DNA of 64,000 nt from Candidatus Jorgensenbacteria bacterium (GTDB lineage: Bacteria; Patescibacteriota; Minisyncoccia; UBA6257; GWB1-50-10): contig JAUSHK010000003.1 in NCBI GenBank assembly GCA_030648515.1, forward strand, positions 44,710-108,709. The letters run 5' to 3'. Each line of letters begins with the position of its first letter. Within the stretch, counting starts at the first letter, position 1. Below are positions 25,768 through 51,367 of this stretch, in pieces. The translations under genes and the position numbers were made by a program. The notes under the pieces were generated by a model. That model was not told the DNA's origin. It made no database searches and saw only the letters and a program-made list of their open reading frames with translations.

Positions 25768-25940
25768 AGTAGTGGTGATAATAGTGTGGATTAGTGGATA
25801 AGTCTATTTTTCTTTTAGTAGTAACGTTTTTCCGTGGCGATTTTTATTGTTGGGTGTTGATAGTGTTGTGTGTAATGTCTAATAAGTTTCATAGGTTGTG
25901 TTAATTGTTCCTAGTTGTTAACAATATAATTAGTACTTAT
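25768..25940. other. candidate chromosomal replication origin (DnaA-box cluster + AT-rich stretch) between dnaA and dnaN
   Basis: TGTGGATtA 25785..25793, aGTGGATAA 25793..25801, TTATCtACA 25923..25931 and AT-rich runs; flanked by dnaA/dnaN and rpmH-rnpA-yidC-jag. Confidence 0.5.
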
Positions 25941-27598: not shown

Positions 27599-27871
27599 TT
27601 GGCCTATTCTATGCCACAGGCCGTCCTGGTTAAGAAATTTAGAAAGGGCTTTCAGAAAAAGCCATTATTTATTATTGCAGGGACGTCGGTTTCAAAAAAA
27701 GCCACCGATCGCAACCGCATAAGGCGTCGTATTCGGGTGATAATGACGCCAATAATGAAAGAACAGCGGAATGACTATGCGATTATTGTGAAACGCGGCG
27801 CGCTCGCGCTTTCCTATAAAAACCTTAAAGAAGAAATTTTAAAATTCATACACCATGATAGAACTGTATAA
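27599..27871 (+). CDS. rnpA: RNase P protein component
   Basis: basic 90-aa protein downstream of rpmH with RNR-motif region (DRNRIRRRIR). Confidence 0.75.
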   Translation: MAYSMPQAVLVKKFRKGFQKKPLFIIAGTSVSKKATDRNRIRRRIRVIMTPIMKEQRNDYAIIVKRGALALSYKNLKEEILKFIHHDRTV

Positions 27872-28550
27872 TTATTTTCTCTACCACCCGATTCTCTGGC
27901 TCCTTGTTGAAATTTATAACACTGTGGCTTTTCATGATTTGGGGATAGCAATCATTCTCCTTACTATTCTTGTGCGCGTGGTGCTTCTTCCCCTCTTTTA
28001 CAAGGGAGCGAAGGACCAAGTGATTATGCAGCGCCTACAGCCCAAGATAAAAGAGATTCAGGAAACGCATCGTGAAAACAAGGAACGGCAGGCGCGGGAG
28101 CTGATGAGTCTGTATCGCGAGCACCGCGTAAATCCCCTCTCGAGCATCCTCCTTGTTGCTATACAACTCCCCATTCTTATCGCGCTTTATCAAGTGTTTG
28201 GTAAGGAGGCGCTTTCTGCAACATTTGACAATCTCTCGTTTCTAAGCTTAATTAACCTAGGGGAAAAGAGCGTCGCTCTAGTAGCTATTGCGGCAATTCT
28301 CCAGTATATTCAAGGGAAACTAGCCCTTCCGAAGCAATCCCCGGCCGACGGACCGAATCCGGTAGCAGCGATTGGGAAAACGATGGTGTATGTGGGACCG
28401 CTCCTTACACTTGTTATTCTTGTAAATCTCCCGTCAGCACTCGGTCTCTATTGGGCGATTTCGACGGCCTTTTCAGTCATTCAGCAGATTTACATCAATA
28501 AACACGTACATATTCAAATAACACCAACAACAAACGAAAAAACCATATGA
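27855..28550 (+). CDS. yidC: membrane protein insertase YidC (short form)
   Basis: ILLTILVRVVLLPL..QRLQPKIKEIQ..SSILLVAIQLPILIALY typical YidC/Oxa1 core. Confidence 0.8.
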   Translation: MIELYNYFLYHPILWLLVEIYNTVAFHDLGIAIILLTILVRVVLLPLFYKGAKDQVIMQRLQPKIKEIQETHRENKERQARELMSLYREHRVNPLSSILLVAIQLPILIALYQVFGKEALSATFDNLSFLSLINLGEKSVALVAIAAILQYIQGKLALPKQSPADGPNPVAAIGKTMVYVGPLLTLVILVNLPSALGLYWAISTAFSVIQQIYINKHVHIQITPTTNEKTI

Positions 28551-28981
28551 ACGAAATTCATACAAAAACAAAAAAACTGCTTGACCTCATTGGGTTCGGA
28601 GGCGCCAATATAAGCATTGATGAAGAGCACCGGAAAATTTCAATTTTTGTGGACGACGAGATTATTAAAGAAAATATCTCGGTAATTCTGCAAACATTTG
28701 ATCATCTTTTAAACCTTATGCTCCGGAGGGAGGGCGACAGGATGTTTGTCGTTGATCTTAATAACTACCGCAAGGAACGCGAGCGGATTATTGCCGACCT
28801 TGCCCGCGCCGCGGCGCACAAGGCGATGCTTACCAAAGCGGATGTGGAGCTTCCTCCAATGAACGCGTACGAGCGCCGATTGGTGCATATGGAGATTGCA
28901 AGCCATCCGGAATTAAAAACCGAAAGCATTGGCGTTGGAAAAGACCGGCGAACAGTAATAAAACACATTGTAAATAGTTAA
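28547..28981 (+). CDS. jag: Jag/KhpB-like RNA-binding protein (KH + R3H)
   Basis: C-terminal R3H motif LPPMNAYERRLVHMEI; position after yidC. Confidence 0.7.
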   Translation: MNEIHTKTKKLLDLIGFGGANISIDEEHRKISIFVDDEIIKENISVILQTFDHLLNLMLRREGDRMFVVDLNNYRKERERIIADLARAAAHKAMLTKADVELPPMNAYERRLVHMEIASHPELKTESIGVGKDRRTVIKHIVNS

Positions 28982-29011: not shown

Positions 29012-30181
29012 TTACTGCCCTGTCGTGAGGCGATAAAGCCCGTTATCCAGTTTGTTTATGAAGTAAAGATAATTCCCTGTGATTCGTGGGTTTTTTGCGT
29101 CGACGGGCTTGCTGTTGTTAAGATCCGAAACAGAGATCTGCTGCATTGAGTCCGCCGCGGTATTCATAAGATAGAGTGCGTCATTAAAGTAGGTTTTATT
29201 GGTAAGATATGCGTCAATGAGGTCCGAATCTTGCGGTACGCTCTCCGCGTTCTGCGGTACAAAACACGCGATAGTAGAGCCAAGTGAGGCGCACTTTTGC
29301 GGAACGGTCTTAAACGGTGTTGGAAAAATACTGGTAAGCATGAGGCCGGTAAAAATTTGGAATTGCGACGCGCTTCCTAAGAAAGTTTTTGTTCTATCCT
29401 GCGACATCCGCAGTACAAGATCATTACCCCCTCTCTGCAATGTATTTACCGCGAGTGTTTTGGTGTCAAAAAGCCAGGCGCGGCTCTGATATGACGGCGA
29501 TGGGAGTTCTGTAATGTATAGGCTTGTCGGCGGAACAAGTGTGAGGCGCACATCGCCGAGGCGGAAGTCTTGGAGAATGGCCTTAAACGCCGGCGGAGTT
29601 TTGGAGACATCATACGTTCCAAGTGTTCTTGCGTCGCCGGATGTTCCGGTGATTGCAATAATCTCATTATCTTTCGCGCCCCATGTTGCGGTTATAATTC
29701 CTGAAGGAAGCGGTCGCCATATTTTATCAACCGCGTCAAAAACGCCCCACTGTAGCGAGCGCGGATTGCCGAACGCCACAAGTGCCCTATCGCCCTTACT
29801 GTTCGGCTCAAGTGAATTTAGTGCCGTAAGCGGCTGGGAAGAAACCTCGGTATCGTCCGCTTCTTTCGCTAAATACACCACCCCGTCCGCGGTAAGATAA
29901 TACGCTTCAAGCGTTCCTGTATTTACCCAATAATCAAAAACTGGTTTGTCGCTTAATTTAACAAACTTTTGCTCAACGGCATTCGTCGCCCCACCTGTCC
30001 CCGGCGACAAAACCTCCGTGGAGGTGGTATTTTCCACAGGCAACGGAAGCATTCCGGTTACCGGCGTCTGCTCGGGGGGTGTTACTGGAGTGCCAGAATT
30101 TCTGAACCAGATTGCATAAACAAGGAGCGCAAGAATAATAACAACAAGCGACGCAATTATGATTTTATAAGAACGGCTCAT
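29012..30181 (-). CDS. hypothetical membrane-anchored extracytoplasmic protein (last gene of T4SS-like operon)
   Basis: single N-terminal TM helix, 360-aa beta-rich exported domain. Confidence 0.4.
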   Translation of the reverse strand: MSRSYKIIIASLVVIILALLVYAIWFRNSGTPVTPPEQTPVTGMLPLPVENTTSTEVLSPGTGGATNAVEQKFVKLSDKPVFDYWVNTGTLEAYYLTADGVVYLAKEADDTEVSSQPLTALNSLEPNSKGDRALVAFGNPRSLQWGVFDAVDKIWRPLPSGIITATWGAKDNEIIAITGTSGDARTLGTYDVSKTPPAFKAILQDFRLGDVRLTLVPPTSLYITELPSPSYQSRAWLFDTKTLAVNTLQRGGNDLVLRMSQDRTKTFLGSASQFQIFTGLMLTSIFPTPFKTVPQKCASLGSTIACFVPQNAESVPQDSDLIDAYLTNKTYFNDALYLMNTAADSMQQISVSDLNNSKPVDAKNPRITGNYLYFINKLDNGLYRLTTGQ

Positions 30182-30197
30182 GATAATAGAACATTTT

Positions 30198-31523
30198 TTA
30201 TTGAGCTAACTGAACATGGAAGTGTCGATCTGCGCCAGTTTCTCTGCATAACTTACCAACTTTACTAGGCGAAGCATAAGCTTTGAGATTATTAAAATCC
30301 TTATCATTTGCAACGCATAATTTAGTAACCCTTGGATTGTCAATAAGGTATTTACCGAGTACGTCCCACGCAAGCTCATTGCTTCTATTTTTAGGAACGA
30401 CGTCAAAAATTGGCTCGCCGGGGCCATGCGTGTTGTGCCCCTCCTCGGTTCCTCCGGTTACTTCAATTTGGCACGGGGGCCATCCACTAAGCGGTTTTGT
30501 CCCAACTTGTATTTCGCAATTTTGCGGGATTTCCTTAAGAAAAGTAATAACGCTATTAGGCATTCCACTAAGAGACGTGCAGTTAGTGGCTTTAGCGGTC
30601 GGACAATCTAGTTTGTTTATGGTAATATTTTTATTTACTTCTAGTTCAGCTCTTAAAGCTGCGTCCGAAGAATAACTTGCTTCCCCTTGTAAACTTGTAA
30701 TTTGTTGCCCTTCAATAATACAAGCGCTCAAATCATCCCGTAGCTGCACTGATTGCACAGATTGCTTCCCGTCATTATAGTCAGGCGGCTGATAAGCGTA
30801 TATGAGACACTTCGCGCTTTCCGAAGGTGTCACAGAGCCTTTTATAAAATACGGATAACTCCACACGATTGAACTTATGGGAATTGAAATATTATAGGTA
30901 GTCAGCCCAAGATAATAATACTTTTTATCCCCAGCGTTTGCGCTGAGCGTTATCTGTTTTGTGGTTACCGTCTTTCGGAATTGGCATCCGTCAACTTCCC
31001 CGGGGACTTCGCTTAAATACAGAATACTAGCTGGATCTCCGCAACTTTTACTCTCAGCCCCGAGCGAAAGGGATGACGACGCTACTGTTTTTTGCGGAGC
31101 GTACGGCTCTTTAAGCGTCACAAGTTCCGGATTGATGGTATTTAAGATGAGATAAGTGCCGAAGAGCAGGACAATCCCCCAAATGGCAGAGGTAATCATC
31201 TCTCTTCCAAGCCCGGCTTTTGTAACATCGCCTGTCGTCGCGGAAATATAAATGCCGCCGGCAATAATCATTCCGACCGCGAGAATGCCCGCTATCGCGA
31301 TGCCGAATTGGTAAATCTTTTTAATGTAATCAATGAACGATGTATCGCTGCTTACGCCAACAGTGCAGTCTTGCCCGAGTTGCCCGGCTGGACACGGAAA
31401 ATTAATGTCTACGATTTGCGATGTGGCAGACGGATCAGTTTTTTCTTGTCCGTATGCCAGCGCGCCAGACATTGTAAACATCACAGTGAATACAAGCAGA
31501 AGAAGAACTAAAAATTTTTTCAT
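30198..31523 (-). CDS. VirB2/TrbC-like pilin module fused to large Cys-containing extracellular domain
   Basis: signal peptide, helix-loop(SATTGD..GREM)-helix identical in architecture to paralogs at 53657..55426, then ~310-aa domain with 10 Cys. Confidence 0.45.
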   Translation of the reverse strand: MKKFLVLLLLVFTVMFTMSGALAYGQEKTDPSATSQIVDINFPCPAGQLGQDCTVGVSSDTSFIDYIKKIYQFGIAIAGILAVGMIIAGGIYISATTGDVTKAGLGREMITSAIWGIVLLFGTYLILNTINPELVTLKEPYAPQKTVASSSLSLGAESKSCGDPASILYLSEVPGEVDGCQFRKTVTTKQITLSANAGDKKYYYLGLTTYNISIPISSIVWSYPYFIKGSVTPSESAKCLIYAYQPPDYNDGKQSVQSVQLRDDLSACIIEGQQITSLQGEASYSSDAALRAELEVNKNITINKLDCPTAKATNCTSLSGMPNSVITFLKEIPQNCEIQVGTKPLSGWPPCQIEVTGGTEEGHNTHGPGEPIFDVVPKNRSNELAWDVLGKYLIDNPRVTKLCVANDKDFNNLKAYASPSKVGKLCRETGADRHFHVQLAQ

Positions 31524-31538
31524 ACGTTTAATAACTGA

Positions 31539-32219
31539 TTATTGAACCATTAATTTCGCACGACCGTTCGCAAATTCCGCAAGGTTACTTTGATTTTGAA
31601 CTGTTCCCGTTATGCGCAGTGTTTGCTGTCCGGACGTCTGAAGCGCCCCAAGTTTTAAAGACAATGCATTGTCCCCGGTTGATTGCTGACGGGTATCATT
31701 AATTTGCCAGAAAAAAATAAGGTCGTTGAGTGAGGAGTTTGTAAAAAAGTACGGAATAGATTTCAAAAATATGTCGCTCTGTGCTTGCACAATACCATTT
31801 GGATATGGCGCTTCAATCACGACTCGCGGCGCCGTGATTGGAATTTGGAGAGATGTTACGAGCGTCCCCTCTGCGCGCTCAATTTCTGCCCGTATGGTGT
31901 GCGTTCCGCTGTCTTTCTGCCGAGCCGTGAACGTTACACTCTTTTTCCCGTGCCCCTCACTCACAAAATTATCATCAAGGTACCACGCGATATTAGAGCC
32001 GCTAATGTTTAAGAATTTCCCTCCGCGCACTACTTCAACGAGCGCTGTCACGGGCGTGCCGGGAGTTACGAGCGGTTTCCCTAGAAAATTCGCCGGATAA
32101 AAATTGTTCGCTTCCCATGTAATAATGACCTGGTCAGTTGTTTGCGCAAGAGCAGTTTGAACAAGTGTAGCGACCGCAAGTATTGCTAAAATAACAATGG
32201 TAAAACGTGCTAAATTCAT
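31539..32219 (-). CDS. hypothetical secreted protein
   Basis: cleavable-type signal peptide (..ALA/QT), beta-rich 200-aa domain. Confidence 0.4.
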   Translation of the reverse strand: MNLARFTIVILAILAVATLVQTALAQTTDQVIITWEANNFYPANFLGKPLVTPGTPVTALVEVVRGGKFLNISGSNIAWYLDDNFVSEGHGKKSVTFTARQKDSGTHTIRAEIERAEGTLVTSLQIPITAPRVVIEAPYPNGIVQAQSDIFLKSIPYFFTNSSLNDLIFFWQINDTRQQSTGDNALSLKLGALQTSGQQTLRITGTVQNQSNLAEFANGRAKLMVQ

Positions 32220-32251
32220 CCCGTTTATTATAACCTATTTAACAGTCGTGC

Positions 32252-32563
32252 TCACGTCTTCTCATGTGGCGCCGCGCGATTATGCATAATCGCGCTGACG
32301 ACAAACACAACAAACGTTGTTGGTATCACAGGAAGTATATTCGCGGCGTACTTAGCTATTTGTCTCCCGATCTTTTTTGAGTCGGCGTCTCCCTTGTTTT
32401 TAAACCAAAACCACGTTGCCGCAGTCACGCCCGCTTGTATAAGCGGGCTCACAATAATGCCGATAGCAAATGCGTCGAGAATCCCGCAAGCAAAGTCAAT
32501 AAAGAACGTGACTAATCCCCCAATAAGGATTTCGGCCTCCGAAAACTTTTTATACTCGCCCAT
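32252..32563 (-). CDS. small 3-TM membrane protein (possible VirB3-like accessory)
   Basis: 103 aa, three hydrophobic segments, directly upstream neighbour of VirB4-like ATPase. Confidence 0.35.
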   Translation of the reverse strand: MGEYKKFSEAEILIGGLVTFFIDFACGILDAFAIGIIVSPLIQAGVTAATWFWFKNKGDADSKKIGRQIAKYAANILPVIPTTFVVFVVSAIMHNRAAPHEKT

Positions 32564-32566
32564 CGA

Positions 32567-34324
32567 TTATTGCTTTTCAATCCCCTTCATCTCGAGCATT
32601 TGCTCCGGATTTGTCGTGATAATCTGGTCCTCGGTGTACGACGCAATAACCTTAAGCGCGACGTGTTTCAATCCAGCGAAGAAAAGCCCTTCGCCGACGT
32701 TTGCTTCAAGGAGAAACGCCTTCTCGCCTTCCGTAAGGCCGAATGTCTGCGCGACCGGCGCGATGCTCGCGGGTGATTGTTTCATAAGAAGCTGGAGCGA
32801 AGAGTTTGTAATGATTGGCCGGCCGTAGTCCGACTTAATGAAATCCTCAACGTCTTGCGTAATCGTTGTAATGCCGAGATAGTATTTGCGCGAGCGTTTT
32901 ACGAGACCAAAGAGGAACGCCGCGCTGTCCTTATACTTCATCATCCACCACGCCTCATCAATGACGAGGATTCTTGGTTTTAGCTGCGAGCGGATGAGGT
33001 TCCAGACGAAGTTTAAAACAATATACATTGCAATCGGCCGCAACTCTTCCTCAAGATCGCGGATTGAAAAAACAATCAGGCGGTTTTTAACATCAACATT
33101 GGTCGGGGCATTCGTAAATCCGGCGTATGAGCCGTTCACGAACTTTTCAAGCCGCTGGCCGATTCCGCGCCCGCCCTCGGTGTTTTGAAGAATTGTCTGG
33201 AGGTCTCCCAAAAGCGGCGGATTAAGCTCTTTCATTGAGCCGAAATTTTCCGCCGTAATGTCGCGCGAGGCATAGGTTTCTGTAATCACGCGGTCAAGGA
33301 TCGCGTCCTCCTCGGGCGTTACGACTCCCAGCATAAGTTTTACAAGGCCGGTAAGGTTCAAGATGTGGGATTTAAACACGTCCGCCGGCTCCTCCCCTTC
33401 CGGTATCACTGGAATATCAAACGGGTTGATGTGGCTCTCGGACGTAAGAGAAATTTTAAAGTAGCTGCCGCCGATCGCGTTTGAAAGATTTTCATACTCA
33501 TTCTCGGGGTCAATGATGATTACGTCATTCCCGAGCATGAGCGATCGGAGAATTTCAAGCTTTGTTGCGTATGATTTCCCGGCACCTGCTTTCGCGAACA
33601 CAACCTGGTTCGCGTTTTCAAGCGAGAAGCGGTCAAAGATGACAAGTCCGTTATTGTGAAGATTTATCCCGTAAAGAATGCCCTTGTCCGATGAAAGATT
33701 TGGCGAGACAAATGGAAAAAGAGACGACGCAGGTCCCGAATTGAGGGGCGTGTGAATCTGAATCTGGTCCTGATTCAGCGGGAGGACCGAATTAAATCCC
33801 TCAATCTGGCGGAAAAGCGCTGGCTTTATGTAGACAAGCTTGCTTTCTAAAACGTTTTCAACGGTGTGCTCAAGCCGGTTTAATTCCTCAATGCTTGCGC
33901 CATAAAACGTGATATAAACCCCGACTTTAAAAAGATGTTCTTGTGCTTGCATCAGCATATCGCGAAGATTCTCTACGTCTTCCTGCGCGGTTTCAAGCGC
34001 CGGGTCGCGCACAAGCCCTTTCTCCTCCTTTTCTGAAAGTTCCACCTCAATTTGCGTAATTTTCTTTTTAAGGCCGCGAAGCGCGAGCGCTGTGTCCATT
34101 GGGTGTATGAAAATTGAGATGTCCATCATTTGCGCCATATTAATAATAGGAGAGAACCACCCGCTTGATATGTATCGCGGATAAGTGAAGATGAAGACGG
34201 TTTTCGCGTAGTAATCGCCGATTTTAAGATAGTTCGAGCTTACCTCAAGGCCGGCGGGGGCGATAATATTTGGAATGTCTTCCTCGGGAGACGCTTTGTA
34301 AGCTTTCGGAATTTTAATATCCAT
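32567..34324 (-). CDS. VirB4/TrbE-like (Gram-positive type) conjugation/secretion ATPase
   Basis: Walker A AKAGAGKSY, Walker B ILVIDEAWWM, N-terminal region with conserved hydrophobic block typical of VirB4-family. Confidence 0.7.
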   Translation of the reverse strand: MDIKIPKAYKASPEEDIPNIIAPAGLEVSSNYLKIGDYYAKTVFIFTYPRYISSGWFSPIINMAQMMDISIFIHPMDTALALRGLKKKITQIEVELSEKEEKGLVRDPALETAQEDVENLRDMLMQAQEHLFKVGVYITFYGASIEELNRLEHTVENVLESKLVYIKPALFRQIEGFNSVLPLNQDQIQIHTPLNSGPASSLFPFVSPNLSSDKGILYGINLHNNGLVIFDRFSLENANQVVFAKAGAGKSYATKLEILRSLMLGNDVIIIDPENEYENLSNAIGGSYFKISLTSESHINPFDIPVIPEGEEPADVFKSHILNLTGLVKLMLGVVTPEEDAILDRVITETYASRDITAENFGSMKELNPPLLGDLQTILQNTEGGRGIGQRLEKFVNGSYAGFTNAPTNVDVKNRLIVFSIRDLEEELRPIAMYIVLNFVWNLIRSQLKPRILVIDEAWWMMKYKDSAAFLFGLVKRSRKYYLGITTITQDVEDFIKSDYGRPIITNSSLQLLMKQSPASIAPVAQTFGLTEGEKAFLLEANVGEGLFFAGLKHVALKVIASYTEDQIITTNPEQMLEMKGIEKQ

Positions 34325-34352
34325 GTAAATAATTAGTAATTAAGGGTTAATG

Positions 34353-34994
34353 CTATTGTTTTCGCGTGGCCTCCAAATTTTTCTTTTCGGTAAGCTGCGG
34401 ATTGTAGAGATTGTAAAAAAGCTCGACCATTTCATCGTCCGCGAGTTCAGCTGTCCGAAGCCCGATTTGCCCAAGGCCGCTAGTGACTTGCGACACCCTC
34501 TGCTCAAGCTGTTCTGCGTTTTCTTTTTCGGTATTCTCCTTTTGTTTCTGATTTGGTTTTTGTCCAAGGACTCCGCTTAAGAAACCGCGCGCTTCAGAAA
34601 CAAGAATAAGTGGCTCGTACGGGACGATTACAAAGAAAGCCTTATCAATAATAGCGTTTTGCTCGACAAATGACTTAATGAACTCAACATATTCCGCAAT
34701 CTGGATTTTGAGGAGTTCATTTGTTTCCTCGTTTTTACGCGCAAGCATGCGCTCAAGATAACTCTCAATATTCACTTTCCTTGAATGGATGAAAAATTGT
34801 ATTGGGAAGTCAAGTCCGTTCAGAAAATTCTGGAACGTACCGAGAATCATTTCCTGTTCTTCCTCTGATTTGAGATCGAAATTAATTCCGCTTACAATTA
34901 AAATTTTTCGCAGCCCGCCCTTTTTTAAATAGACGATGCTGTTTTTAACCTCTTTAATTTCTACGAATTTTTGCGTCGGCAAAGATGGCTCCAT
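34353..34994 (-). CDS. hypothetical cytoplasmic protein of T4SS-like operon
   Basis: 213 aa, no TM; no recognisable motif. Confidence 0.4.
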   Translation of the reverse strand: MEPSLPTQKFVEIKEVKNSIVYLKKGGLRKILIVSGINFDLKSEEEQEMILGTFQNFLNGLDFPIQFFIHSRKVNIESYLERMLARKNEETNELLKIQIAEYVEFIKSFVEQNAIIDKAFFVIVPYEPLILVSEARGFLSGVLGQKPNQKQKENTEKENAEQLEQRVSQVTSGLGQIGLRTAELADDEMVELFYNLYNPQLTEKKNLEATRKQ

Positions 34995-35006
34995 GTGTTT
35001 ATTATA

Positions 35007-35489
35007 TTAGTAATCTATGCGCTTTGCCACAACTTTTTCTCCGGTTATCCGCGTAACGACCTGAAGTCGCTCCCCCGAGGATTCCTTGCTCTCGGTAAAT
35101 ATTTTTCCCGTTGCGATATTCATAGTAATAGATTTCAACTTTTCCTGGATGCTCATCGTGTTCCGCACTGCCTTAATCCGCTCAATATCGGAAACGTCAA
35201 CGTCTTTTGATATTCTCTGCCACGTGTAGACGCGCGGCTGCCACATATATGAGAGTCCAGAGAGAAGTGCCTGCGTGGCGTCTTGCCCATTGATTTTTAT
35301 AAACGCGAGCGCCGCGGCGGCTCCGCCCACGATAATCGTAATCAAAATCCAGAAAAACATGTTGAAAATGTTATATGAGATAACACTAATAAGGAACGCG
35401 CCCGCGATAAAGAAAAACTGCCGGAGCGTAAGTGGTCCGATGATTTTTGCCTTTTCTTCAATGAATTGTGGGACTTGGAATGTTGCCAT
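35007..35489 (-). CDS. 2-TM membrane protein (possible PrgI/VirB3-like)
   Basis: 160 aa, two adjacent TM helices near N-terminus then soluble tail. Confidence 0.35.
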   Translation of the reverse strand: MATFQVPQFIEEKAKIIGPLTLRQFFFIAGAFLISVISYNIFNMFFWILITIIVGGAAAALAFIKINGQDATQALLSGLSYMWQPRVYTWQRISKDVDVSDIERIKAVRNTMSIQEKLKSITMNIATGKIFTESKESSGERLQVVTRITGEKVVAKRIDY

Positions 35490-35490
35490 G

Positions 35491-36459
35491 TTATTGCTTG
35501 AGATTTACGATGTTGCCGTCTAAAAGTACACCCCCTTTCATTGTATCCTCTCCTTGTTTTTGAGGCGAACTTATTTGTTGCGCGGGTAATGGAGCCGGAA
35601 TCGGCGAGATTGGCGGAACTGGCGCGTTAGGCGCCTTAATTGACTGCGGCGCGGAGCTTGGAGCCGCTCCACGGGCACCTCCGCCGAAAGTTTCTAGATT
35701 AATAAACTCCCCTCCGCGCGACACTGGAGAAATCGGCGTGCGGAATTCGCTGTAGTGCACTACGCGCTTATCCTGAGCGGAGCCGAAGGATTTCTCCGGC
35801 TGTGGCTTGCTCTGAACTTGCCGATTTTCGTCAGGCGCCTCGATTTTGGCTTTTACCGGATTTTGTATTTCTTGCGGCGTGATTTTTTGCGCGAAGAAAC
35901 TGAATGATTTAGAAAGGTCCTTGAACGGAACTTTTGTACGTTCACTTGCGCCGGGTCCGAGTGGGCGCATCTCGTGAAGAATAAGCGGCGCGCCTTCCTC
36001 GCCCATCGTTTGTTTTGAGGCACCTTCGCGGATTGGTATTTGGGCTGTCTTTTCTTCGGATCTTTTTCCCTGAGCGGGAACATTTTGCAATAAACTTCCT
36101 CCCTGACGCGAAAGTGCTAACTCTTCATCAGCTGGCATATATATCTGCGCGAGGTCGCTTTTTACGGGGTTGAAAATTTCAGAAGCGAGCTCGTTTGAAA
36201 GCGCGGTCGCATGCTCAAAGTTCATATAAAGCCGGTCAACAAGTTCCTGCTTCAAGTCGCGCATATCAAGAAATCCAAGGAGCACGAGCCCGACGAGCTG
36301 TTCAAGAAGTCCGATTTTCTCGCGGCTCAAGTAATGCGATTTTCCAATTTGTGTTACAAGTTTTTCCGTGTGTTCGCTCGCAAGTAATTCCTGAATATGC
36401 TCAGGTAACGTATCAAATCGGTCTGAAATAATTTCTTGTGTGAGAAGTGAGTAATCCAT
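35491..36459 (-). CDS. hypothetical protein with Pro/Ala-rich disordered C-terminus
   Basis: 322 aa, structured N-terminal ~120 aa, low-complexity remainder. Confidence 0.4.
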   Translation of the reverse strand: MDYSLLTQEIISDRFDTLPEHIQELLASEHTEKLVTQIGKSHYLSREKIGLLEQLVGLVLLGFLDMRDLKQELVDRLYMNFEHATALSNELASEIFNPVKSDLAQIYMPADEELALSRQGGSLLQNVPAQGKRSEEKTAQIPIREGASKQTMGEEGAPLILHEMRPLGPGASERTKVPFKDLSKSFSFFAQKITPQEIQNPVKAKIEAPDENRQVQSKPQPEKSFGSAQDKRVVHYSEFRTPISPVSRGGEFINLETFGGGARGAAPSSAPQSIKAPNAPVPPISPIPAPLPAQQISSPQKQGEDTMKGGVLLDGNIVNLKQ

Positions 36460-36462
36460 ATA

Positions 36463-38514
36463 TTACACCGTGTTTGGAGGTATTGTATTGCCGCTTTGGC
36501 CCTGTCCTGGCTGTTGCTGACTTTGTGTTGGGCTTGTTGAGGCGGTAGGTGGTTGTTGTGATTGTCCGCGTCTATTTCTCCCAGTGACCCCCATTGCCTT
36601 ATTCATGGCGCCTTGTTCTTTGTCTTTTTGAACCGCTACACTCGCATACGTCTTTATCCTAAAGTTGAGATCAGTAAGCGCTCCTTCTGTTTCCTTAAAT
36701 TTCTTTTTTGCGGTAGCTTTATCAGTCTTAGAAGCTTTCTCATCATCTTTAACCCTATCCCAATCCGCTTTAGCGGCACTAAATTCGCTTTGTAATTCGT
36801 TTTGTCCCTTGTTTTTCTTGCCATTATCATCAGTAAACCCATCAATAATCTTCTTAAGATTTGCATTTACTTCATCCATCCCCTTGCCTCCTAAATCTAC
36901 ACGAATCTCGTTCTCAATAATTCTATTGAGTTCTCCTTTTAGCCGTTTAACATCTGTATCAATTCCCATAACTTCTTTTGAATCCTCCTTGTATCCCGCC
37001 TGTATCATATTTTCCTTGAGATTTTCCCTTGTTTTAATATCTTCCGTAATTTCCCCCTTGGATTTTCTTTCTTGCGGTTTTTCTTCTTTCTTTTCAATAG
37101 CTCCGATACTTTCAAGACCACCTCTTGTAAGTATTCCGATTATGCCCTTAGCCTTAATATCCGGCGCTTTTGCGAGGTCCTGCATTGTCTTAGCCCGTCC
37201 GGAAAGCAGTTCCCCTGTTGCACCACTCAAGGAAGAAAATCCAGTGGCCTTAGTGGCAACATTGGCCGCGCGCTTACTCCAACGTTTCATAAATCCATCA
37301 TCCGGTTTCACCTTCCAATAATCACCAGCGACTCCTTGTAGTGCCTTGCCGCCGCCCTGAAGCCTTTTTGCAACATTCTGTCCAAACCTAGTCCGTGCCG
37401 TTGCTTGAGTGCTGCGGCGCGCAATATTCCCCGCCCATTTTTTTGTGCTGTTTCCAAGGCTTTGTGCCGCGCCGAGCGCTGCCTTTGCACCAGTAGCTCC
37501 CATCGACTGTGCTGTTATAAGCCCCATCATGAGGATGCCGCACAACACAATCAAATTAAGGCCATTAGAAATAGTTTCTCGTATAGCGCCAAGCGCTGTT
37601 CCGCCAACTATGCCCGTTGGAGGGTTTTCTGCAAACTGCTGTGCGGCGACAACCGCCAAGTAAACAAAGAACGACATTGCCGGAGCAAATAATAACTGCT
37701 CAGTAAACTTTTTCCACCACTTACTCCAGTGTTCGGAAAGCGCAGGAAACGCGAGTGTGAGGCACGCCATCGGCGCGAGAATCAATAAAACAGAAAGATA
37801 AAGATATCTTGCAAGGAGCATGAATGCAAACCCAAGCATCGTAATCGCGGCAATCATTGTAAACGCGACATTGAATACGAGCGTGGTAAGTCCCACAAGC
37901 ACCGCTGTTCCAAATGTCGCAAGTCCGCCCCCTTGTTCCGCGGGATCCGGCGGTGGCGGGTCGGCTGGCGGCGTAAGAAACTTCTGCGGGTTTATAACCC
38001 TTCCTATCGTGTCGGATAATAGAAGGCTGGTACCCTCAGGGACGGTTCTTCTGATAAAGAATTTTGTGAGAACATTCGAAAACTGGATGAGTGAGCCGGC
38101 GATGGTGAGCGAGAAATTCACAAGAATCGCGACTGCTATGAGTTTTCCGAGAAGTTTATTATTGCCGTAGCTCTGGTATCTTACGATGGTTGCGATGGCG
38201 ATGATAATCGCAAGGAGCACAAAGCCGAGGTTCGCAAGGTCGCGGGTGATTGTCCACCCTATCTGCACTACTTTATTGGTGGAATTTAAAATATCAAAGT
38301 TCAACTGAAGCGCGATATCAACAAGCCACCCTCCTAAAATGAGAAGCGCTCCGGAAATAAAATTAAAGAGGTACCCAATGTAATAGAAAAAACCGCCGAC
38401 AATTTCCGAGGTGCTCCATCCTAGCGCGCTCGCCTGATGCGGGATAATAAATACGATAAATGATACAAAGAAAACTGTGAAAAGTATTTTTTTGTTGAAA
38501 AATTTCATGAGCAT
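36463..38514 (-). CDS. VirB6/TrbL-like polytopic membrane protein with long charged/Q-P-rich C-terminal tail
   Basis: N-terminal signal-like segment, >=5 TM helices over ~450 aa, then K/E-rich coiled-coil-like and Gln/Pro-rich terminus. Confidence 0.55.
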   Translation of the reverse strand: MLMKFFNKKILFTVFFVSFIVFIIPHQASALGWSTSEIVGGFFYYIGYLFNFISGALLILGGWLVDIALQLNFDILNSTNKVVQIGWTITRDLANLGFVLLAIIIAIATIVRYQSYGNNKLLGKLIAVAILVNFSLTIAGSLIQFSNVLTKFFIRRTVPEGTSLLLSDTIGRVINPQKFLTPPADPPPPDPAEQGGGLATFGTAVLVGLTTLVFNVAFTMIAAITMLGFAFMLLARYLYLSVLLILAPMACLTLAFPALSEHWSKWWKKFTEQLLFAPAMSFFVYLAVVAAQQFAENPPTGIVGGTALGAIRETISNGLNLIVLCGILMMGLITAQSMGATGAKAALGAAQSLGNSTKKWAGNIARRSTQATARTRFGQNVAKRLQGGGKALQGVAGDYWKVKPDDGFMKRWSKRAANVATKATGFSSLSGATGELLSGRAKTMQDLAKAPDIKAKGIIGILTRGGLESIGAIEKKEEKPQERKSKGEITEDIKTRENLKENMIQAGYKEDSKEVMGIDTDVKRLKGELNRIIENEIRVDLGGKGMDEVNANLKKIIDGFTDDNGKKNKGQNELQSEFSAAKADWDRVKDDEKASKTDKATAKKKFKETEGALTDLNFRIKTYASVAVQKDKEQGAMNKAMGVTGRNRRGQSQQPPTASTSPTQSQQQPGQGQSGNTIPPNTV

Positions 38515-38525
38515 TCAGGAAGCGC

Positions 38526-40505
38526 CTATTGGCTCATAAACGATTCGCTTGTTGTCGCTGTTCGCGCGCCCGACCCGGTCGCCGACGCAGTTGCGGAAAT
38601 CGCCGATGTATTAAGGGCCGACTGCGCCGGACATATATATTCCTTTGCCCGATTTTCGCAGAGAACTTTCTCGTCGCTGAACTGTTTTATCGTTAACTGA
38701 AGCTGTGTTTTAAGCGTTCCAAGTGCTTGAACATTGCTTTGGAGACTACTAAGAACGGAATTTAATGATGTGATAAGTGAAATGAGCGTATTATCATCTG
38801 AACTTTCGGCACTGGATTGAATGTTTCTCGCTTGCGCGATTATAGCGGTCGCCTGGTCGAGGTCGCTTTGCATTGTGGAAAGCGACGTCGCTAAATTTTT
38901 CGCGCTCGAAACCGCGGTATTAGTATTTGCGCATCCATCCCCCGACATTATCCCGTTCAGCGTGCGGTCTTTTTGGCAGACGAGCAACTTTTCTGTCATG
39001 GTGTCTGCGGCATCATTATTGGCAACACGCGCATTAAGTGCGATAACCTCTGGCAGAAGCGCATTTTCATCTTGCCACGCCTGCGTGGTGCTCGCGATAA
39101 GATTATTTACTGTTTGAACAAGCGATGCGCCTAAGTTGCCGGCGTTTCGATAATCAGTTGCGCCCTGTAAAAGCCCCGCTGTTCCCGCGGCACTCGCTGT
39201 AAGTGGTGTTGATTTTCTCCCCGTGGTGGTTTCGCTAAAGATATCGCTTGCCGAATTTTTGATTCCCTTCACTCCTGATGAGATAAGCCGGTTTACCGCC
39301 GCGTCAAAAATCATAGACATATACGGAGTAAGATCGTCGGCGCTCAAGAGATAATCAGTGTCAGAGGTAAATGCCTTATTAGTAGCAGCTTCTTTTACAG
39401 TGTAAGGTAACGTCGTTTCAGTGTTCTTGCAATTCCAGCGAAGATTTCTAGCGTTACTAAAGTTTTCAGGAACAAGGTCCTGAGACGGATCGGACGGATT
39501 GTATGTAGGTGGTTTTGTCGGATCAGGGAATTTACTTGTGTTAAGTGTGGGACCAAGGATTTCCTGCTCGAAGCCATTAAAAGTTCCAAGGAGTCGCCAC
39601 TGAGTACACTGTTCTGTTGGGGTAAATCCAGCGCTTACGTTAAATTGTGCTTGTTTTTTAGCTTCTTCTTCCGCTTTTTTCTTTTGGTAATCCTCGTACG
39701 TCATATACGCGAGGCCATACTGGTTATTCTGCGGTTTTAGAAGTTCGTAATACCCGAGCCATCCTCCGGTTGTGAAATTGTCGCGAAACCCCGCCGCATT
39801 ATCCATAACTTGCGAAAGCGTACAGCTGTATCGTTCCGCGGGAGGTACTGATTGTTGAAGTTGTAAGTTAATATTGAAACGAAACGCATTGCCATAACAA
39901 AGGTTTCCCAAGCCGATGTCGATGAGTGTATCGCCGGCCGCTTTATCTGCCGCATCCCTCATAAATCCCGTGAAATTCGTGACAAACTGAGGCTTTCCGC
40001 CATCTCCCCTGATCCACGAGATGGTCTGGTCAGTCATGCGGTCCAATAGGCGCTTCTTGAAATTATAGAGGGCAATCTTTCCGGCCTGATTCATTATGTC
40101 GGTGATACATGTCTGGATGGACTGTGTATTCACAATATCTCTAAGTCCAGTTTCTTTTACACGCTGCTCGCCCCCAATGATTCCTCCAGTGAGAAAGCTG
40201 AGGCCACTTGATATGCCGCTTGATATAAGTCCGGTAACTTCTTGGAGAAGCATGTTCATGCCCGTTTTTATAAAACATTTATTTGTAGAAGCTTTTTTCT
40301 CATCTATAAGCTTTTCAGCCGTTGGAGCTGGAGCAATGATATTATTGGGATTTGCGAGATCCGGCGATGGTACGAGGTTTCTTGTTGCCGGAGTGTTAGC
40401 GTCGTCCCCGCTCGTTTGGGCATAGGAAATAAACGGCAAGCTAGCGCCTAAAACAATTGTCGCGGAGAGCAATATCGCAATGAATTTTAATCCTTTAGAA
40501 TCCAT
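38526..40505 (-). CDS. large secreted hypothetical protein
   Basis: signal peptide, 659 aa, Thr/Ser/Asn-rich, no motif. Confidence 0.4.
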   Translation of the reverse strand: MDSKGLKFIAILLSATIVLGASLPFISYAQTSGDDANTPATRNLVPSPDLANPNNIIAPAPTAEKLIDEKKASTNKCFIKTGMNMLLQEVTGLISSGISSGLSFLTGGIIGGEQRVKETGLRDIVNTQSIQTCITDIMNQAGKIALYNFKKRLLDRMTDQTISWIRGDGGKPQFVTNFTGFMRDAADKAAGDTLIDIGLGNLCYGNAFRFNINLQLQQSVPPAERYSCTLSQVMDNAAGFRDNFTTGGWLGYYELLKPQNNQYGLAYMTYEDYQKKKAEEEAKKQAQFNVSAGFTPTEQCTQWRLLGTFNGFEQEILGPTLNTSKFPDPTKPPTYNPSDPSQDLVPENFSNARNLRWNCKNTETTLPYTVKEAATNKAFTSDTDYLLSADDLTPYMSMIFDAAVNRLISSGVKGIKNSASDIFSETTTGRKSTPLTASAAGTAGLLQGATDYRNAGNLGASLVQTVNNLIASTTQAWQDENALLPEVIALNARVANNDAADTMTEKLLVCQKDRTLNGIMSGDGCANTNTAVSSAKNLATSLSTMQSDLDQATAIIAQARNIQSSAESSDDNTLISLITSLNSVLSSLQSNVQALGTLKTQLQLTIKQFSDEKVLCENRAKEYICPAQSALNTSAISATASATGSGARTATTSESFMSQ

Positions 40506-40520
40506 GTTTTATTGTTACGA

Positions 40521-41330
40521 TTAAAGTTTGCTAAGTGTATTTTGAAATGACGCGAGTAACTGTTCCTCATTATTTACCGCATCCGAAAGTCCTTGAAGCG
40601 CGGCAAGCGGTTTTAAACTATCTTGATTGCCATCAAGGACAGCTTTTCCTAGCTCGTAGCGCTCGTTCCACGCGTTTATAAAATCAAGATGAAACGAGGC
40701 GAGATTAGGCGGCGCGGTAATCGCAAGAAGATCAGTGATTTGGTCAGAAGTCGTAGTTAGATAGCCCTGAAGCTTTTCCGCGCTCTGGTTTATAACAGCA
40801 TCAGCGACCATCGCTAAGTATTGGTCATCCTGTCCGTGAAAATTTTTTATGTACGTGTTTTGGATATTTTTAAGATACGCGAGCGCGGCTTCCTTACTGA
40901 AATCGTTTGAGATTTTTATATCTTTTGTTTCGTAGTGTTTTATTGCAATACCACGAGAAAGTTCGTCGCTTATAATATTGCCCAGCGTCGCCTCATTCGG
41001 CACGGTGATTGGAGAGCTTGTGCCCACGCCAAACTTATTTGCATTAAAAATTTCCTGCTGATAGCGCTGAATAACCCGCTCGGTAATACTATTAGGATTT
41101 TGCTGTACCGCGGAATCGGTGTTGGTCGCGACCACGCTTGAAGTCGCAAAACGTCCAGAATCAACTCCGGACCGGATGATTTCAAAAAGCGACGCAACGT
41201 TCCCGGTTTTGGACTTTGAATTTACAATCCAGAATGAAATCCCTGCTCCGATAAGAACAATAAAAATTGCAATGACAAACCGCCTGTTTTGAAACATTTT
41301 TGTCCTCTTATTATACACTATCGCGGGCAA
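40521..41330 (-). CDS. bitopic membrane protein (candidate VirB8-like scaffold)
   Basis: single TM near N-terminus, ~220-aa extracytoplasmic domain; overlaps rsmA 3' end by 20 nt. Confidence 0.35.
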   Translation of the reverse strand: MPAIVYNKRTKMFQNRRFVIAIFIVLIGAGISFWIVNSKSKTGNVASLFEIIRSGVDSGRFATSSVVATNTDSAVQQNPNSITERVIQRYQQEIFNANKFGVGTSSPITVPNEATLGNIISDELSRGIAIKHYETKDIKISNDFSKEAALAYLKNIQNTYIKNFHGQDDQYLAMVADAVINQSAEKLQGYLTTTSDQITDLLAITAPPNLASFHLDFINAWNERYELGKAVLDGNQDSLKPLAALQGLSDAVNNEEQLLASFQNTLSKL

Positions 41331-42093
41331 GATTTTTAATAATTTGGACGCCTAAATCTTGCGGGCGCGAGTGAGGATCAACCCCGTACTGTTTAAGCAG
41401 CCCCAAAAGAGTTTCTTGAGGAATTTCGAGGGTCTTTAAATTGTTTAAAACCGTCTTTCGTGGCTGCTTAAAAAGCGCGCGGATGAACGGGTAATACGAT
41501 TCAGTAATAATGCTTTTATCTTTGGGGAGCATGACAAGTTTAATGATGGCCGAATCAACTTTTGGCTGAGGCGAGAAATCGCTTCGCGGAATTATTTCAA
41601 TGATTTTGGGTTCCGCCCACACTTGCACGCTCGCCGCGAGAAGATTCATCTTGGGAGGATGCGCCGCAAGGCGTTCAGCGACCTCTTTTTGAACGGTAAG
41701 CACTATAACGCTCGGTTTTTTAGGAAGCTCGCCGAGTATCCGCAGGAGATGCCCGGTAATGTAATACGGAATGTTCCCCACTAGTTTGTAGTGAGTAGTT
41801 TGTAGTGAGTAGTCGGAGATAATTTTAGGCAGTACTTTGAGAGCATCCCCGCAAACAATCTCAATATTCCGATTTTTTTGAAACCTCTTTTTTAGTTCTG
41901 CGGCAAGTCTCATATCCTTTTCTACCCCCATAATTCGTACTTCATAATTCATAATTCTCTCCGTGAGCTCTCCGTGACCGGGCCCGATTTCAACAACAAT
42001 ATCGCCTGGTTGGATATCGAGCGACTCAACGATATGCCTGATTTTTTCAGGGTTTTTAAGAAAGTTTTGACCGTAGCGTTTTTGCGCGCGCAT
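41311..42093 (-). CDS. rsmA: 16S rRNA (adenine1518/1519-N6)-dimethyltransferase RsmA/KsgA
   Basis: QNFL, VVEIGPGHGELT SAM motif, NIPYYI; contains 14-nt tandem duplication. Confidence 0.85.
   Translation of the reverse strand: MRAQKRYGQNFLKNPEKIRHIVESLDIQPGDIVVEIGPGHGELTERIMNYEVRIMGVEKDMRLAAELKKRFQKNRNIEIVCGDALKVLPKIISDYSLQTTHYKLVGNIPYYITGHLLRILGELPKKPSVIVLTVQKEVAERLAAHPPKMNLLAASVQVWAEPKIIEIIPRSDFSPQPKVDSAIIKLVMLPKDKSIITESYYPFIRALFKQPRKTVLNNLKTLEIPQETLLGLLKQYGVDPHSRPQDLGVQIIKNLARDSV
41782..41809. repeat. perfect 14-nt tandem duplication inside rsmA
   Basis: tagtttgtagtgag x2; 13-mer ttgtagtgagtag also at 6078..6090. Confidence 0.6.
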
Positions 42094-42137: not shown

Positions 42138-42821
42138 TTGACCTTTATTAAGAAGGGTGCCTGCCTGCGCAGGCAGGTTTTGAAGGCGGCCATGCCCCAA
42201 ATAAAGACCGGATCGGCGTGGCTTGTCATTTTTGCGATATCCGCAATTGCGGCGCATCAAATCGCTGTATATACGCTTGCGCACGCAGGAGAGCGTGACA
42301 GCGCAAAAACTATAAGCGAAGAAATTGGAAAATATAATCTTGATGCAAGCCTTCTCGCTGTTGCCGGCCAGTTTTCGTCCGCGGCCAGTAAAACAGAGCA
42401 GGTTATTGCCACAAACGGGTCCGCAATGATGGGCACGCTCGATCCGTTTACGACGCTTATAAAAAAAGAAGGCGGCGCGCAGACGTATAAAGTAAAACGC
42501 GGAGAAACTCTGCAAGGCATCGCAAAAAAGTTCGGAATCTCGGTGGAAACAATAAAAACGACAAATCCGAGCATCAGCTCGAAAGTTGCTATGGGCCAAA
42601 CGCTATCAATTTTGCCGGTTTCGGGGATTCTCTACCCTGTTTCCGAGAATGACACGCTTCAGCTTATCGCAGAACGTTACAACGTTGATTCGAACCTCGT
42701 AAAAATTTACAATCCTAACTACATTGATGTTCTTACATCAGGTAACGGCACGCTTATCTTGCCCAACGCTATTTCGCCAGTTGTAACTATGAAGCTGGCG
42801 GCCACGTCTACAAATAAATAA
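42138..42821 (+). CDS. membrane-anchored protein with two LysM peptidoglycan-binding domains
   Basis: YKVKRGETLQGIAKKFGISVETI and YPVSENDTLQLIAERYNVDSNLV LysM motifs. Confidence 0.7.
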   Translation: MTFIKKGACLRRQVLKAAMPQIKTGSAWLVIFAISAIAAHQIAVYTLAHAGERDSAKTISEEIGKYNLDASLLAVAGQFSSAASKTEQVIATNGSAMMGTLDPFTTLIKKEGGAQTYKVKRGETLQGIAKKFGISVETIKTTNPSISSKVAMGQTLSILPVSGILYPVSENDTLQLIAERYNVDSNLVKIYNPNYIDVLTSGNGTLILPNAISPVVTMKLAATSTNK

Positions 42822-48872: not shown

Positions 48873-49148
48873 TTACGCCTCAATCGCGAGTTTCTTCGCG
48901 AGCTTTTCGTATTTCTTCTCGTTCGTGTGTTTTAAATATTCCAAAAACTTCCTCCGCTTCCCTACCATCATAATAAGCCCGCGGCGCGAGTGATGATCCT
49001 TCGCGTTTTTCTTTAAATGGTTCGCGAGTTCGCTGATACGCTTCGTAAGAATGCCGATTTGCACCTCCGCCGAGCCGGTATCCCGATCGTGTTTTTGGTG
49101 TTCTTTTATGACCGTCTGCTTTTTACGTTTAGTAAGCATATATCTCAA
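48873..49148 (-). CDS. rpsO: 30S ribosomal protein S15 (true start probably at second Met, 49139)
   Basis: DTGSAEVQIGILT..HLKKNAKDHHSRRGL conserved S15 core. Confidence 0.8.
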   Translation of the reverse strand: MRYMLTKRKKQTVIKEHQKHDRDTGSAEVQIGILTKRISELANHLKKNAKDHHSRRGLIMMVGKRRKFLEYLKHTNEKKYEKLAKKLAIEA

Positions 49149-49242
49149 TCGTACCGCAAATATGTTTGATTGTCAAAATTCCGTCCGAAATGGTGCCTGC
49201 CCCGTTTCCAACGGGTGTCGCACAATAATGTACAATAAAGAT

Positions 49243-50139: not shown

Positions 50140-50165
50140 CTTTGGTACTTGTGGTTAACCCTTAA

Positions 50166-51067: not shown

Positions 51068-51111
51068 GTTTTTGAAATTATTTTTTTACTAATGTTAATT
51101 ATTTCTTCCTG

Positions 51112-51309: not shown

Positions 51310-51367
51310 TTTAATAGAAACTTAATTCATTAAATACGAGACAAAATTATAAGAAAGGAGTTGTGCT

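Follow-up and report, generated by a model that had tools for sequence, protein, structure and literature searches.

What kind of machine is encoded by a run of membrane-protein genes that carries a VirB4-type ATPase, lacks the usual partners of conjugation, and lies among the housekeeping genes of a bacterial chromosome? The question is raised by positions 29012..42093 of a 64,000-nt stretch of DNA (hereafter the window) from Candidatus Jorgensenbacteria (Paceibacteria), where twelve open reading frames (ORFs) follow one another on the minus strand. With a probability of about 0.8, we read this locus as a chromosomal type IV secretion system (T4SS) of the 'Patescibacteria clade', which is nested in MPF_FATA, placed beside genes of the replication origin. 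The identities of its components are well supported by sequence comparison, whereas what it transports, and in which direction, we can only infer. An earlier reading of the same DNA from its letters, here called the original prediction, had proposed a reduced T4SS-like or pilus-like machine of the cell envelope, with components resembling VirB4, VirB6, and VirB2; this stands in outline, and is amended below with regard to the subunits it took to be novel, the wall hydrolase, and the rsmA gene.

Much of bacterial diversity belongs to the Patescibacteria (the Candidate Phyla Radiation, CPR), which live on other cells. A chromosomal T4SS near the origin is carried by nearly all of these ultra-small bacteria, and nothing in the present locus is new at the level of the system; the novelty that had been implied for the apparatus falls away, as such systems were published between 2023 and 2025 (PMC12102498; PMC10633639). 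Quinonero-Coronel et al. (2025) described a monophyletic clade of Patescibacteria VirB4 proteins nested in MPF_FATA, accompanied by TrsD, PrgI/VirB3, VirB6, and VirB2-like pilins that are often arrayed; a relaxase hardly ever accompanies them, a coupling protein is seldom close by, and in Paceibacteria and Microgenomatia the locus adjoins dnaA, dnaN, rnpA, rpmH, and KsgA (PMC12102498). Using transposon sequencing (Tn-seq), Wang et al. (2023) demonstrated that Southlakia epibionticum requires both its pilin array and its T4SS genes for epibiotic growth, and they noted that coupling and relaxase proteins are lacking (PMC10633639). A 2025 review presents such systems as the first T4SSs, and the only ones known, to be essential for growth of the bacterium encoding them, and suggests that uptake from the host takes place via a pilus conduit (PMC12857230).

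The signature component of the locus is the VirB4 ATPase encoded at 32567..34324 (-), which comprises the middle domain and the C-terminal motor and displays both a Walker A (AKAGAGKSY) and a Walker B (ILVIDEAWWM) motif. Against NF045971 (conju_CD1110), the NCBIfam model 'VirB4-like conjugal transfer ATPase, CD1110 family', it scores 362.8 bits (E 3.7e-108) over profile positions 186-733 of 752, exceeding the curated cut-off of 325; it also matches PF19044 (P-loop_TraG, 1e-24) and is 25% identical to PrgJ of pCF10 across 557 aa (E 1e-35). The protein is therefore a member of the VirB4 family, as had been claimed. The original prediction had itself named clustering with HerA/FtsK-type ATPases as grounds for giving up a T4SS identity, and a translocase of that type, unrelated to T4SSs and surrounded by unrelated membrane proteins, would accord with a match to Pfam DUF87, the HerA central domain (1.9e-7). 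VirB4-specific models nevertheless score far higher than DUF87, with VirB4_plasma at 289.8 bits and TraC at 159.6 bits in addition to the CD1110 score, and PrgI, TrsD, VirB6-like, and pilin genes are adjacent, so that profile scores and gene neighborhood together refute this explanation, which we regard as scarcely credible. The best 120 relatives of the protein are 76-100% identical to it and 579-595 aa in length, and every organism name given for them belongs to Patescibacteria/CPR; a metagenome-assembled genome of Candidatus Jorgensenbacteria contains an identical VirB4. On sequence relationship it would accordingly be placed with the Patescibacteria VirB4s nested in MPF_FATA.

A scan of a genome collection recovered 80 loci from related species (L001-L080), and the counts given here for individual genes refer to those loci whose contigs extend far enough. 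The signal exceeds chance by a wide margin, both in the VirB4 E value and in a gene order that is kept in the 80 loci. Profile searches of the sort suggested with the original prediction returned matches to VirB4, PrgI/VirB3, TrsD, and pilin models, and two of the eight subunits previously taken to be novel are thereby assigned, while the other six are still without a family. The ORF at 34353..34994 (-) is TrsD-like and homologous to the N-terminal domain of VirB4: it matches NF041427 TrsD at 2.7e-10, under the curated cut-off, and aligns only to the N-terminal parts of VirB4 profiles (VirB4_plasma 104-232, CD1110 3-105, TIGR00929 18-186). TrsD is a separate ORF adjoining virB4 in 67 of 68 related loci and, since the best 120 VirB4 proteins are also nearly uniform in length, the split between the two genes is not a sequencing artefact; a separate trsD gene beside virB4 would be in keeping with the Patescibacteria clade. 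The small membrane protein encoded at 35007..35489 (-), with two transmembrane (TM) segments, matches PF12666 PrgI at 2.1e-10 (41.4 bits against a Pfam gathering cut-off of 27), and the gene is detected in 65 of 66 loci. These matches identify it as a VirB3-like partner near VirB4.

The polytopic channel protein is recognized less directly. Residues 10-333 of the membrane protein encoded at 36463..38514 (-) contain about 8-9 hydrophobic segments, and a long tail comes after them that is both K/E-rich and Q/P-rich, in agreement with the at least five TM helices and the tail described previously. The hydrophilic tail agrees with the 'extended VirB6' type (PMC12857230). PF04610 TrbL is matched by 5 of 41 orthologs, among them the one in locus L026, which scores above the gathering cut-off of the family (28.9 bits against 25.9); across 485 residues, this ortholog and the window protein are 38% identical (E 5e-77), and a weak TrbL_3 match is on record for the ortholog in L081. 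No match was obtained when the TM domain was compared with plasmids by tblastn, and a PDB profile search with the alignment gave nothing significant. The earlier VirB6-like assignment is upheld through these orthologs, and by orthology only the protein may be counted as an extended VirB6/TrbL-like channel component.

VirB2-like pilins are encoded both inside the cluster and at a distance from it. Four divergent genes at 53657..55426 (-), beyond the cluster coordinates, match PF18895 T4SS_pilin with E values from 2.7e-10 to 8.9e-14, and two of the four also match PF04956 TrbC/VirB2. The N-terminus of the protein encoded at 30198..31523 (-) is 18-28% identical to these four paralogs and has in common with them a helix-loop(GD)-helix arrangement and the motif ILAV.MI..G...S.GD...G..I..A..G, confirming that the two share a module. 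Its own match to PF18895 is at 0.002 only, and 15 of its 16 orthologs match the family, the best at 6.6e-10. The PF18895 and PF04956 matches, together with those of the orthologs of the fusion protein, bear out the VirB2-like claim and suggest a pilin complement, partly arrayed, like that of the Patescibacteria clade; the array is the probable pool of pilus subunits.

The setting of the cluster is that of an ordinary chromosome. On one flank lie clpB, ruvABC, polA, a gene for a penicillin-binding protein, and dnaN and dnaA (24658..27308), followed by rnpA, yidC, and jag (27599..28981); on the other lie rsmA, a LysM protein gene, comM, pnp, gyrA, and ftsH. The cluster is therefore found at the chromosomal position near dnaA/dnaN/rnpA/KsgA that is described for Paceibacteria and Microgenomatia. 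Across the related loci the order comM/lysM/rsmA/40521-like/38526-like/VirB6-like/35491-like/prgI/trsD/virB4/small TM gene/31539-like/pilin fusion/29012-like/jag-yidC-rnpA/dnaA(-dnaN) is kept, and most cluster genes are present in 87-99%. Those detected less often (40521, 32252, and 35491) are short or fast-evolving, and, in the loci inspected, a size-matched gene occupies the position of 40521, as one does for 35491 and 32252 in L081/L082. Median tblastn identity across the 80 loci is 74% for VirB4, 67% for DnaA (25941..27308), 53% for YidC, and 47% for RsmA; by this measure VirB4 is more conserved than DnaA in these species, which points to strong selection.

The twelve minus-strand ORFs are all present as described in the original prediction, and their close packing is confirmed, the gaps measuring, from the rsmA end, 13, 15, 11, 3, 1, 12, 28, 3, 32, 15, and 16 nt (range 1-32 nt). 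The 20-nt overlap proposed between rsmA and the next ORF does not survive: it requires a TTG start at 41330, and an alternative ATG at 41297 with the Shine-Dalgarno sequence AAGAGGA upstream leaves 13 nt past the rsmA stop codon. The ATG is the more likely start, and the overlap is more likely a start-codon artefact. The rsmA (ksgA) gene itself, at 41311..42093 (-), encodes a 16S rRNA dimethyltransferase (PF00398, 5e-50) and is a syntenic upstream neighbor of the T4SS and not part of it. Of the 44 related loci with room for it, 42 have it upstream of the cluster and on the cluster's strand. An extra gene stands between rsmA and the cluster in about 10 of these 42: in L003 (the same as L081/L082, 2432..3145) an opposite-strand gene for an Rce1-like CPBP protease, and in some nine others an ORF of 120-220 aa, on the same strand where readable. 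Co-transcription of rsmA with the cluster is rated only as possible because of these insertions, one of them on the opposite strand, and because the overlap is artefactual. What had seemed an odd regulatory coupling is a known conserved synteny, KsgA being a neighbor of the T4SS locus near oriC in Patescibacteria (PMC12102498).

Could the cluster instead be the transfer region of an ordinary conjugative element, such as an integrated plasmid or an integrative and conjugative element (ICE), with its relaxase and coupling protein beyond the window? Its VirB4 belongs to the CD1110 family that is typical of Firmicute ICEs and plasmids, and a tyrosine recombinase gene (49051..50139) lies about 7 kb away, adjoining a low-GC stretch. 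In dozens of species, nevertheless, the cluster is framed by housekeeping genes in an unchanged order, those of the dnaA side on one flank and rsmA/comM on the other; its GC content is even throughout, and its DNA has no match among plasmids. The nearest plasmid VirB4 proteins, of the CD1110 family from Firmicutes and Actinobacteria, are 30-34.5% identical, and VirB4 has diverged in parallel with its host lineage, with conservation on a par with DnaA. Pfam scans, which covered the ORFs of the cluster and the longer flanking ORFs rather than every window ORF of at least 120 aa, detected no relaxase, VirD4, VirB11, VirB9/10, or lytic transglycosylase, as had been noted before, and no sequence like PcfC or PcfG of pCF10 occurs within 10 kb of virB4 in any of the 80 loci. 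The coupling protein (VirD4/TcpA), the relaxase, and the mobile-element context of a conjugative MPF_FATA system are thus all missing from the ORFs and loci scanned; attachment sites flanking the cluster, patchy presence, and a linked relaxase were likewise not seen. Relaxases occur in just 103 of 3,035 genomes (PMC12102498). An origin in a plasmid or ICE with a relaxase, which the original prediction would have taken as evidence of ordinary conjugation, is on this evidence rejected as very unlikely, and, as a fixed housekeeping locus that is accompanied by neither relaxase nor coupling protein, the cluster is taken not to be a conjugation apparatus.

One detail of the locus is fresh, namely that a pilin is predicted to be fused to a putative cell-wall-cutting enzyme. 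The AlphaFold2 model of the protein encoded at 30198..31523 (mean predicted local distance difference test score (pLDDT) 77, rising above 90 for the C-terminal domain) begins with a signal helix, which is followed by a two-helix hairpin, a beta-rich middle domain containing Cys residues, and a C-terminal domain of about 155 residues, with the pilin hairpin at about residues 60-135 and the LAS-fold domain at about residues 285-441. Its structural matches include MepA, Sonic hedgehog, and VanX (listed figures 10.8, 8.0, and 6.6), as well as the T5 L-Ala-D-Glu peptidase (6.1), LysB4 (5.9), and a Streptomyces DD-peptidase (5.7), all of which are members of the LAS metallopeptidase group; the hairpin matched an archaeal conjugative pilin (6.7). 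The C-terminal domain is accordingly predicted to have the Hedgehog/DD-peptidase fold of a Zn-metallopeptidase. Its putative metal ligands, H366-x7-D374 and H434-x-H436, are kept in 24/28, 28/28, 28/30, and 29/30 sequences, respectively. Curated membership of the M15, M23, or M74 families is lacking, as neither the window protein nor its 16 orthologs have a Pfam or NCBIfam match in this domain; a distant relative (P0163) carries PF13539 Peptidase_M15_4, and PHROG endolysin matches were obtained for single members only. The C-terminus of VirB2 lies outside the cell and, because this topology would also expose the C-terminal domain of the fusion, we read the protein as the putative wall hydrolase of the system, anchored via its pilin module. 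The original prediction was right that no lytic transglycosylase is found, and wrong in so far as a candidate wall hydrolase is present after all, in the form of this fused peptidase domain.

Fusions of this kind are widespread. A search of the whole library with the LAS-like domain recovered at least 150 representatives of 50%-identity clusters, 142 of them new; the pilin module lies upstream of the domain in 124 of these 142, and the motifs are kept in 122. Among positional counterparts of the pilin fusion in the 80 loci, 26 of 62 have the LAS signature and the remainder have different C-terminal domains, including one M23-like tail and Cys-rich domains of unknown type. Relatives in which a pilin is fused to varied extracellular domains (proteins P0150, P0163, and P0193-P0334) include pilin+Peptidase_M15_4 and pilin+SLT fusions. 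No description of a pilin-LAS peptidase fusion was found in the literature searched, which is not proof of novelty.

The remaining proteins of the cluster, encoded at 29012, 31539, 32252, 35491, 38526, and 40521, have no consistent Pfam or NCBIfam match (134 orthologs were searched, with singleton matches at chance level only), and alignments of all but 32252 gave no significant PDB profile match. Comparison of accessory alignments with PrgL and PrgK of pCF10 by hhalign was negative. The product of 29012..30181 (-) is an N-terminally anchored extracytoplasmic protein of 389 aa with one TM helix, detected in 49 of 55 loci at 96% coverage; it is probably a beta-propeller, on the strength of weak matches to RBBP7 (0.018) and TolB (0.12). 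Next to the pilin fusion, 31539..32219 (-) encodes a membrane-anchored or secreted protein of 226 aa with an N-terminal hydrophobic segment, beta-rich by sequence pattern, which is found in 58 of 67 loci at about 94% coverage and has no similarity to PrgL by hhalign. The 103-aa membrane protein encoded at 32252..32563 (-) has two TM segments, a small gene at the same position in related loci, and no profile match in Pfam or NCBIfam. Neither a TM helix nor a signal sequence is present in the predicted cytoplasmic protein of 35491..36459 (-), in which an N-terminal helical domain is followed by a disordered region with the short conserved motifs PFILHEEK, KGFSxPFGFF, KRVVHYSExRTP, and EGNxVDLR; it might be an adaptor or a substrate. 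The 659-aa secreted protein of 38526..40505 (-), detected in 42 of 45 loci, has a signal-like N-terminus and conserved cysteines and is mostly helical, with a C-terminal coiled coil or helical bundle. Its AlphaFold2 model is poor (pLDDT 55) and confident only for the bundle at residues 460-620, and its Foldseek and PDB profile matches are generic coiled coils; hints of T4 lysozyme or GH108 in the PDB profile search (E 0.05-0.7) are unsupported on both counts. Lastly, 40521..41297 (-) encodes a fast-evolving bitopic protein of about 258 aa with a single N-terminal TM helix, conserved in position, with genes for 250-270 aa at the same place in related loci; it has no Pfam, NCBIfam, or PDB match and no similarity to PrgL.

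Several observations weigh against the assignment of the locus to the Patescibacteria-clade T4SSs, or against particular parts of it. The VirB6-like protein of the window has no Pfam match itself, and its alignment with PrgH of pCF10 (hhalign with a single template, which is uninformative) gave a Prob of 0.5. No VirB8-like protein was found with Pfam, NCBIfam, and PDB profiles over the accessory ORFs and their orthologs. The usual His-Asp spacing of LAS enzymes is x6, and the H366-D374 spacer of x7 is one residue beyond the canonical H-x(3-6)-D range; some orthologs of the fusion read SxHxxGxCxD, which restores x6. Scans for promoters and terminators came close to the shuffled expectation (24 vs 20.2 and 20 vs 19.1, respectively) and, being at chance level, are uninformative on operon structure. 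We know of no cultured Jorgensenbacteria, and the essentiality data come from Southlakia, of the class Saccharimonadia and not of the Paceibacteria (PMC10633639). VirD4-like genes are found elsewhere in most Patescibacteria genomes (PMC12102498), and the window spans 64 kb, so that a coupling protein or relaxase may lie at a distance in this genome.

Set beside the Patescibacteria-clade T4SSs (PMC12102498), including SEML1_0006-0019 of Southlakia (PMC10633639), the locus has the same VirB4, separate TrsD, PrgI/VirB3, VirB6, and pilins including an array; in both, the cluster encodes neither a relaxase nor a coupling protein and lies in the chromosome, beside dnaA/dnaN/rnpA/KsgA. It differs in that the pilin array of Jorgensenbacteria is 11.5 kb from the core and not inside it, in that the six accessory proteins have no recognizable counterparts in profile libraries, and in its predicted hydrolase, a LAS-fold peptidase fused to a pilin module. 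With the conjugation systems of monoderm MPF_FATA (prgD-pcfG of pCF10, the CD1110 family of Clostridioides difficile CTn2, and trs of pGO1) it has a CD1110-family VirB4 and PrgI in common, and with pGO1-type systems TrsD as well, and the prgH-prgI-prgJ-prgK order of pCF10 resembles the window's VirB6-VirB3-VirB4-wall hydrolase. In contrast to those systems, it is without a type IV coupling protein (T4CP; PcfC), relaxase (PcfG), PrgL (VirB8-like), PrgD, or LPXTG adhesins, it is fixed in the chromosome and not on a mobile element, and it has VirB2-like pilins, which are absent from Gram-positive systems (PMC12102498; PMC12857230). The pCF10 gene past VirB4 is annotated 'phage tail tip lysozyme', whereas its counterpart in the window is a predicted LAS-type peptidase. 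The domain concerned keeps the His...Asp and His-x-His residues of LAS metallopeptidases such as MepA (peptidase M74), VanX, the phage M15 L-Ala-D-Glu peptidases, and the Sonic hedgehog N-domain; unlike these, it goes undetected by Pfam and NCBIfam models, has the x7 spacer, and is tethered to a VirB2-like membrane hairpin via a Cys-rich beta domain. Non-conjugative T4SSs that lack a T4CP (Bordetella Ptl, Brucella VirB, Helicobacter ComB, and archaeal Ced) are, like the window locus, driven by VirB4 without a relaxase or nearby coupling protein and put to a use other than plasmid transfer. Apart from archaeal Ced, these are diderm systems with VirB7/9/10 outer-membrane cores, whereas the window locus is of the monoderm type with extracytoplasmic proteins of its own.

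What, then, would such a machine do? In the mechanism we propose, VirB4 and TrsD would dock on a membrane platform of VirB3 and VirB6, and VirB4 would spend ATP to pull VirB2-like pilins out of the membrane into a pilus-like conduit across the cell wall. The pilin-anchored LAS-type peptidase may stand in for VirB1 and cut the cross-links of peptidoglycan, whether that of the cell itself or that of its host, and the lineage-specific extracytoplasmic proteins 29012, 31539, 38526, and 40521 may form a wall-spanning or host-contact part. The use of this T4SS is most likely contact-dependent exchange between the epibiont and its host cell. We favor uptake of host macromolecules via the pilus/T4SS, with effector export a close alternative; effector export, DNA import, and adhesion alone are live alternatives that the present evidence does not separate.

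Import of host or environmental DNA as a source of nucleotides or genes, in the manner of archaeal Ced or Helicobacter ComB, is a sub-hypothesis on function that is compatible with the identity of the system. It would suit the lack of a relaxase and T4CP and the conserved neighbor comM, which we take to be of a transformation-associated helicase family. The 2025 study that defined the clade proposes import of DNA or other macromolecules and reports that in class ABY1 the T4SS has genes for competence and recombination as neighbors (PMC12102498). The VirB4 also has a weak NCBIfam similarity to CedB (4.3e-10, far under the cut-off), but this score reflects the common VirB4/HerA-type ATPase fold, and none of the cluster genes was recognized as coding for a DNA-binding or translocase component. 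The comEC gene of Southlakia is dispensable and its T4SS essential (PMC12857230), which shows only that the essentiality is not via ComEC. We consider DNA import possible but rather unlikely. Injection or release of proteins onto or into the host, perhaps including the pilin-tethered hydrolase, with leakage of nutrients as the result, seems to us possible to a like degree. In the view of Wang et al., the T4SS 'may instead export proteins' (PMC10633639), T4SSs that secrete protein without a T4CP exist in Ptl and Brucella VirB (PMC12102498), a predicted wall hydrolase is encoded in the cluster, and the cytoplasmic, partly disordered product of 35491..36459 could be a substrate or adaptor. Yet no recognizable effector or secretion signal was found, and the hydrolase and other extracytoplasmic proteins carry Sec-type N-termini and hence need no T4SS. 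A platform of VirB4/B3/B6 that assembles VirB2-type pili for attachment alone, without transport, appears unlikely. Four divergent pilins and a pilin fusion would fit such an organelle, and divergent pilin arrays may adapt a cell to different host strains (PMC12102498), but a PilB-like type IV pilus ATPase is also in the genome for adhesion, and the extreme conservation of VirB4, with the essentiality seen in Southlakia (PMC10633639), suggests more than attachment without excluding it.

Uptake of host macromolecules can be taken a step further, into an idea that we offer as speculative and improbable. The pilin-tethered LAS peptidase and the six accessory envelope proteins might form a tip or collar of the VirB2-type pilus that breaches the host wall, with the T4SS acting 'in reverse' as a feeding tube that pulls in host cytoplasmic macromolecules, and pilin-hydrolase fusions (at least 124 sequence clusters) might be a general replacement for VirB1 in Patescibacteria. 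If true, these fusions would be a general T4SS component of the group that has gone undescribed until now. Independently of this, the locus is a clear example from the Paceibacteria, mapped exactly gene by gene, and in it two 'unknowns' are corrected to TrsD and PrgI/VirB3. The widely recurrent pilin-anchored LAS-type peptidase is a testable candidate for the missing wall-opening enzyme, and the six conserved accessory proteins without a known family are obvious targets for learning how host contact is made.

Some further features of the window may be recorded. A PilB-type T2SSE ATPase is encoded at 14471..16150 (PF00437, 1.5e-117), flanked by ORFs without a Pfam match at 12970..14330, so the genome also has type IV pilus machinery. 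The LysM protein gene at 42138..42821 (+), divergent from rsmA, encodes 227 aa with LysM domains only, whereas its counterpart in L081 (483..1547) encodes 354 aa with an added Peptidase_M23 domain. Within 49051..52000, the tyrosine recombinase gene (PF00589, 2.8e-39) adjoins a stretch of low GC content (0.34, against about 0.47) that holds tRNA-Leu(tag) at 51111..51193 and ORFs without a Pfam match at 50166..50759 and 51368..51769; this may be an integrated element of small size or simply XerC/D next to AT-rich spacer DNA. Finally, a tRNA-Ile with the anticodon TAT, which is uncommon in bacteria, is found at 63544..63616 and implies decoding of AUA without a lysidine-modified tRNA.

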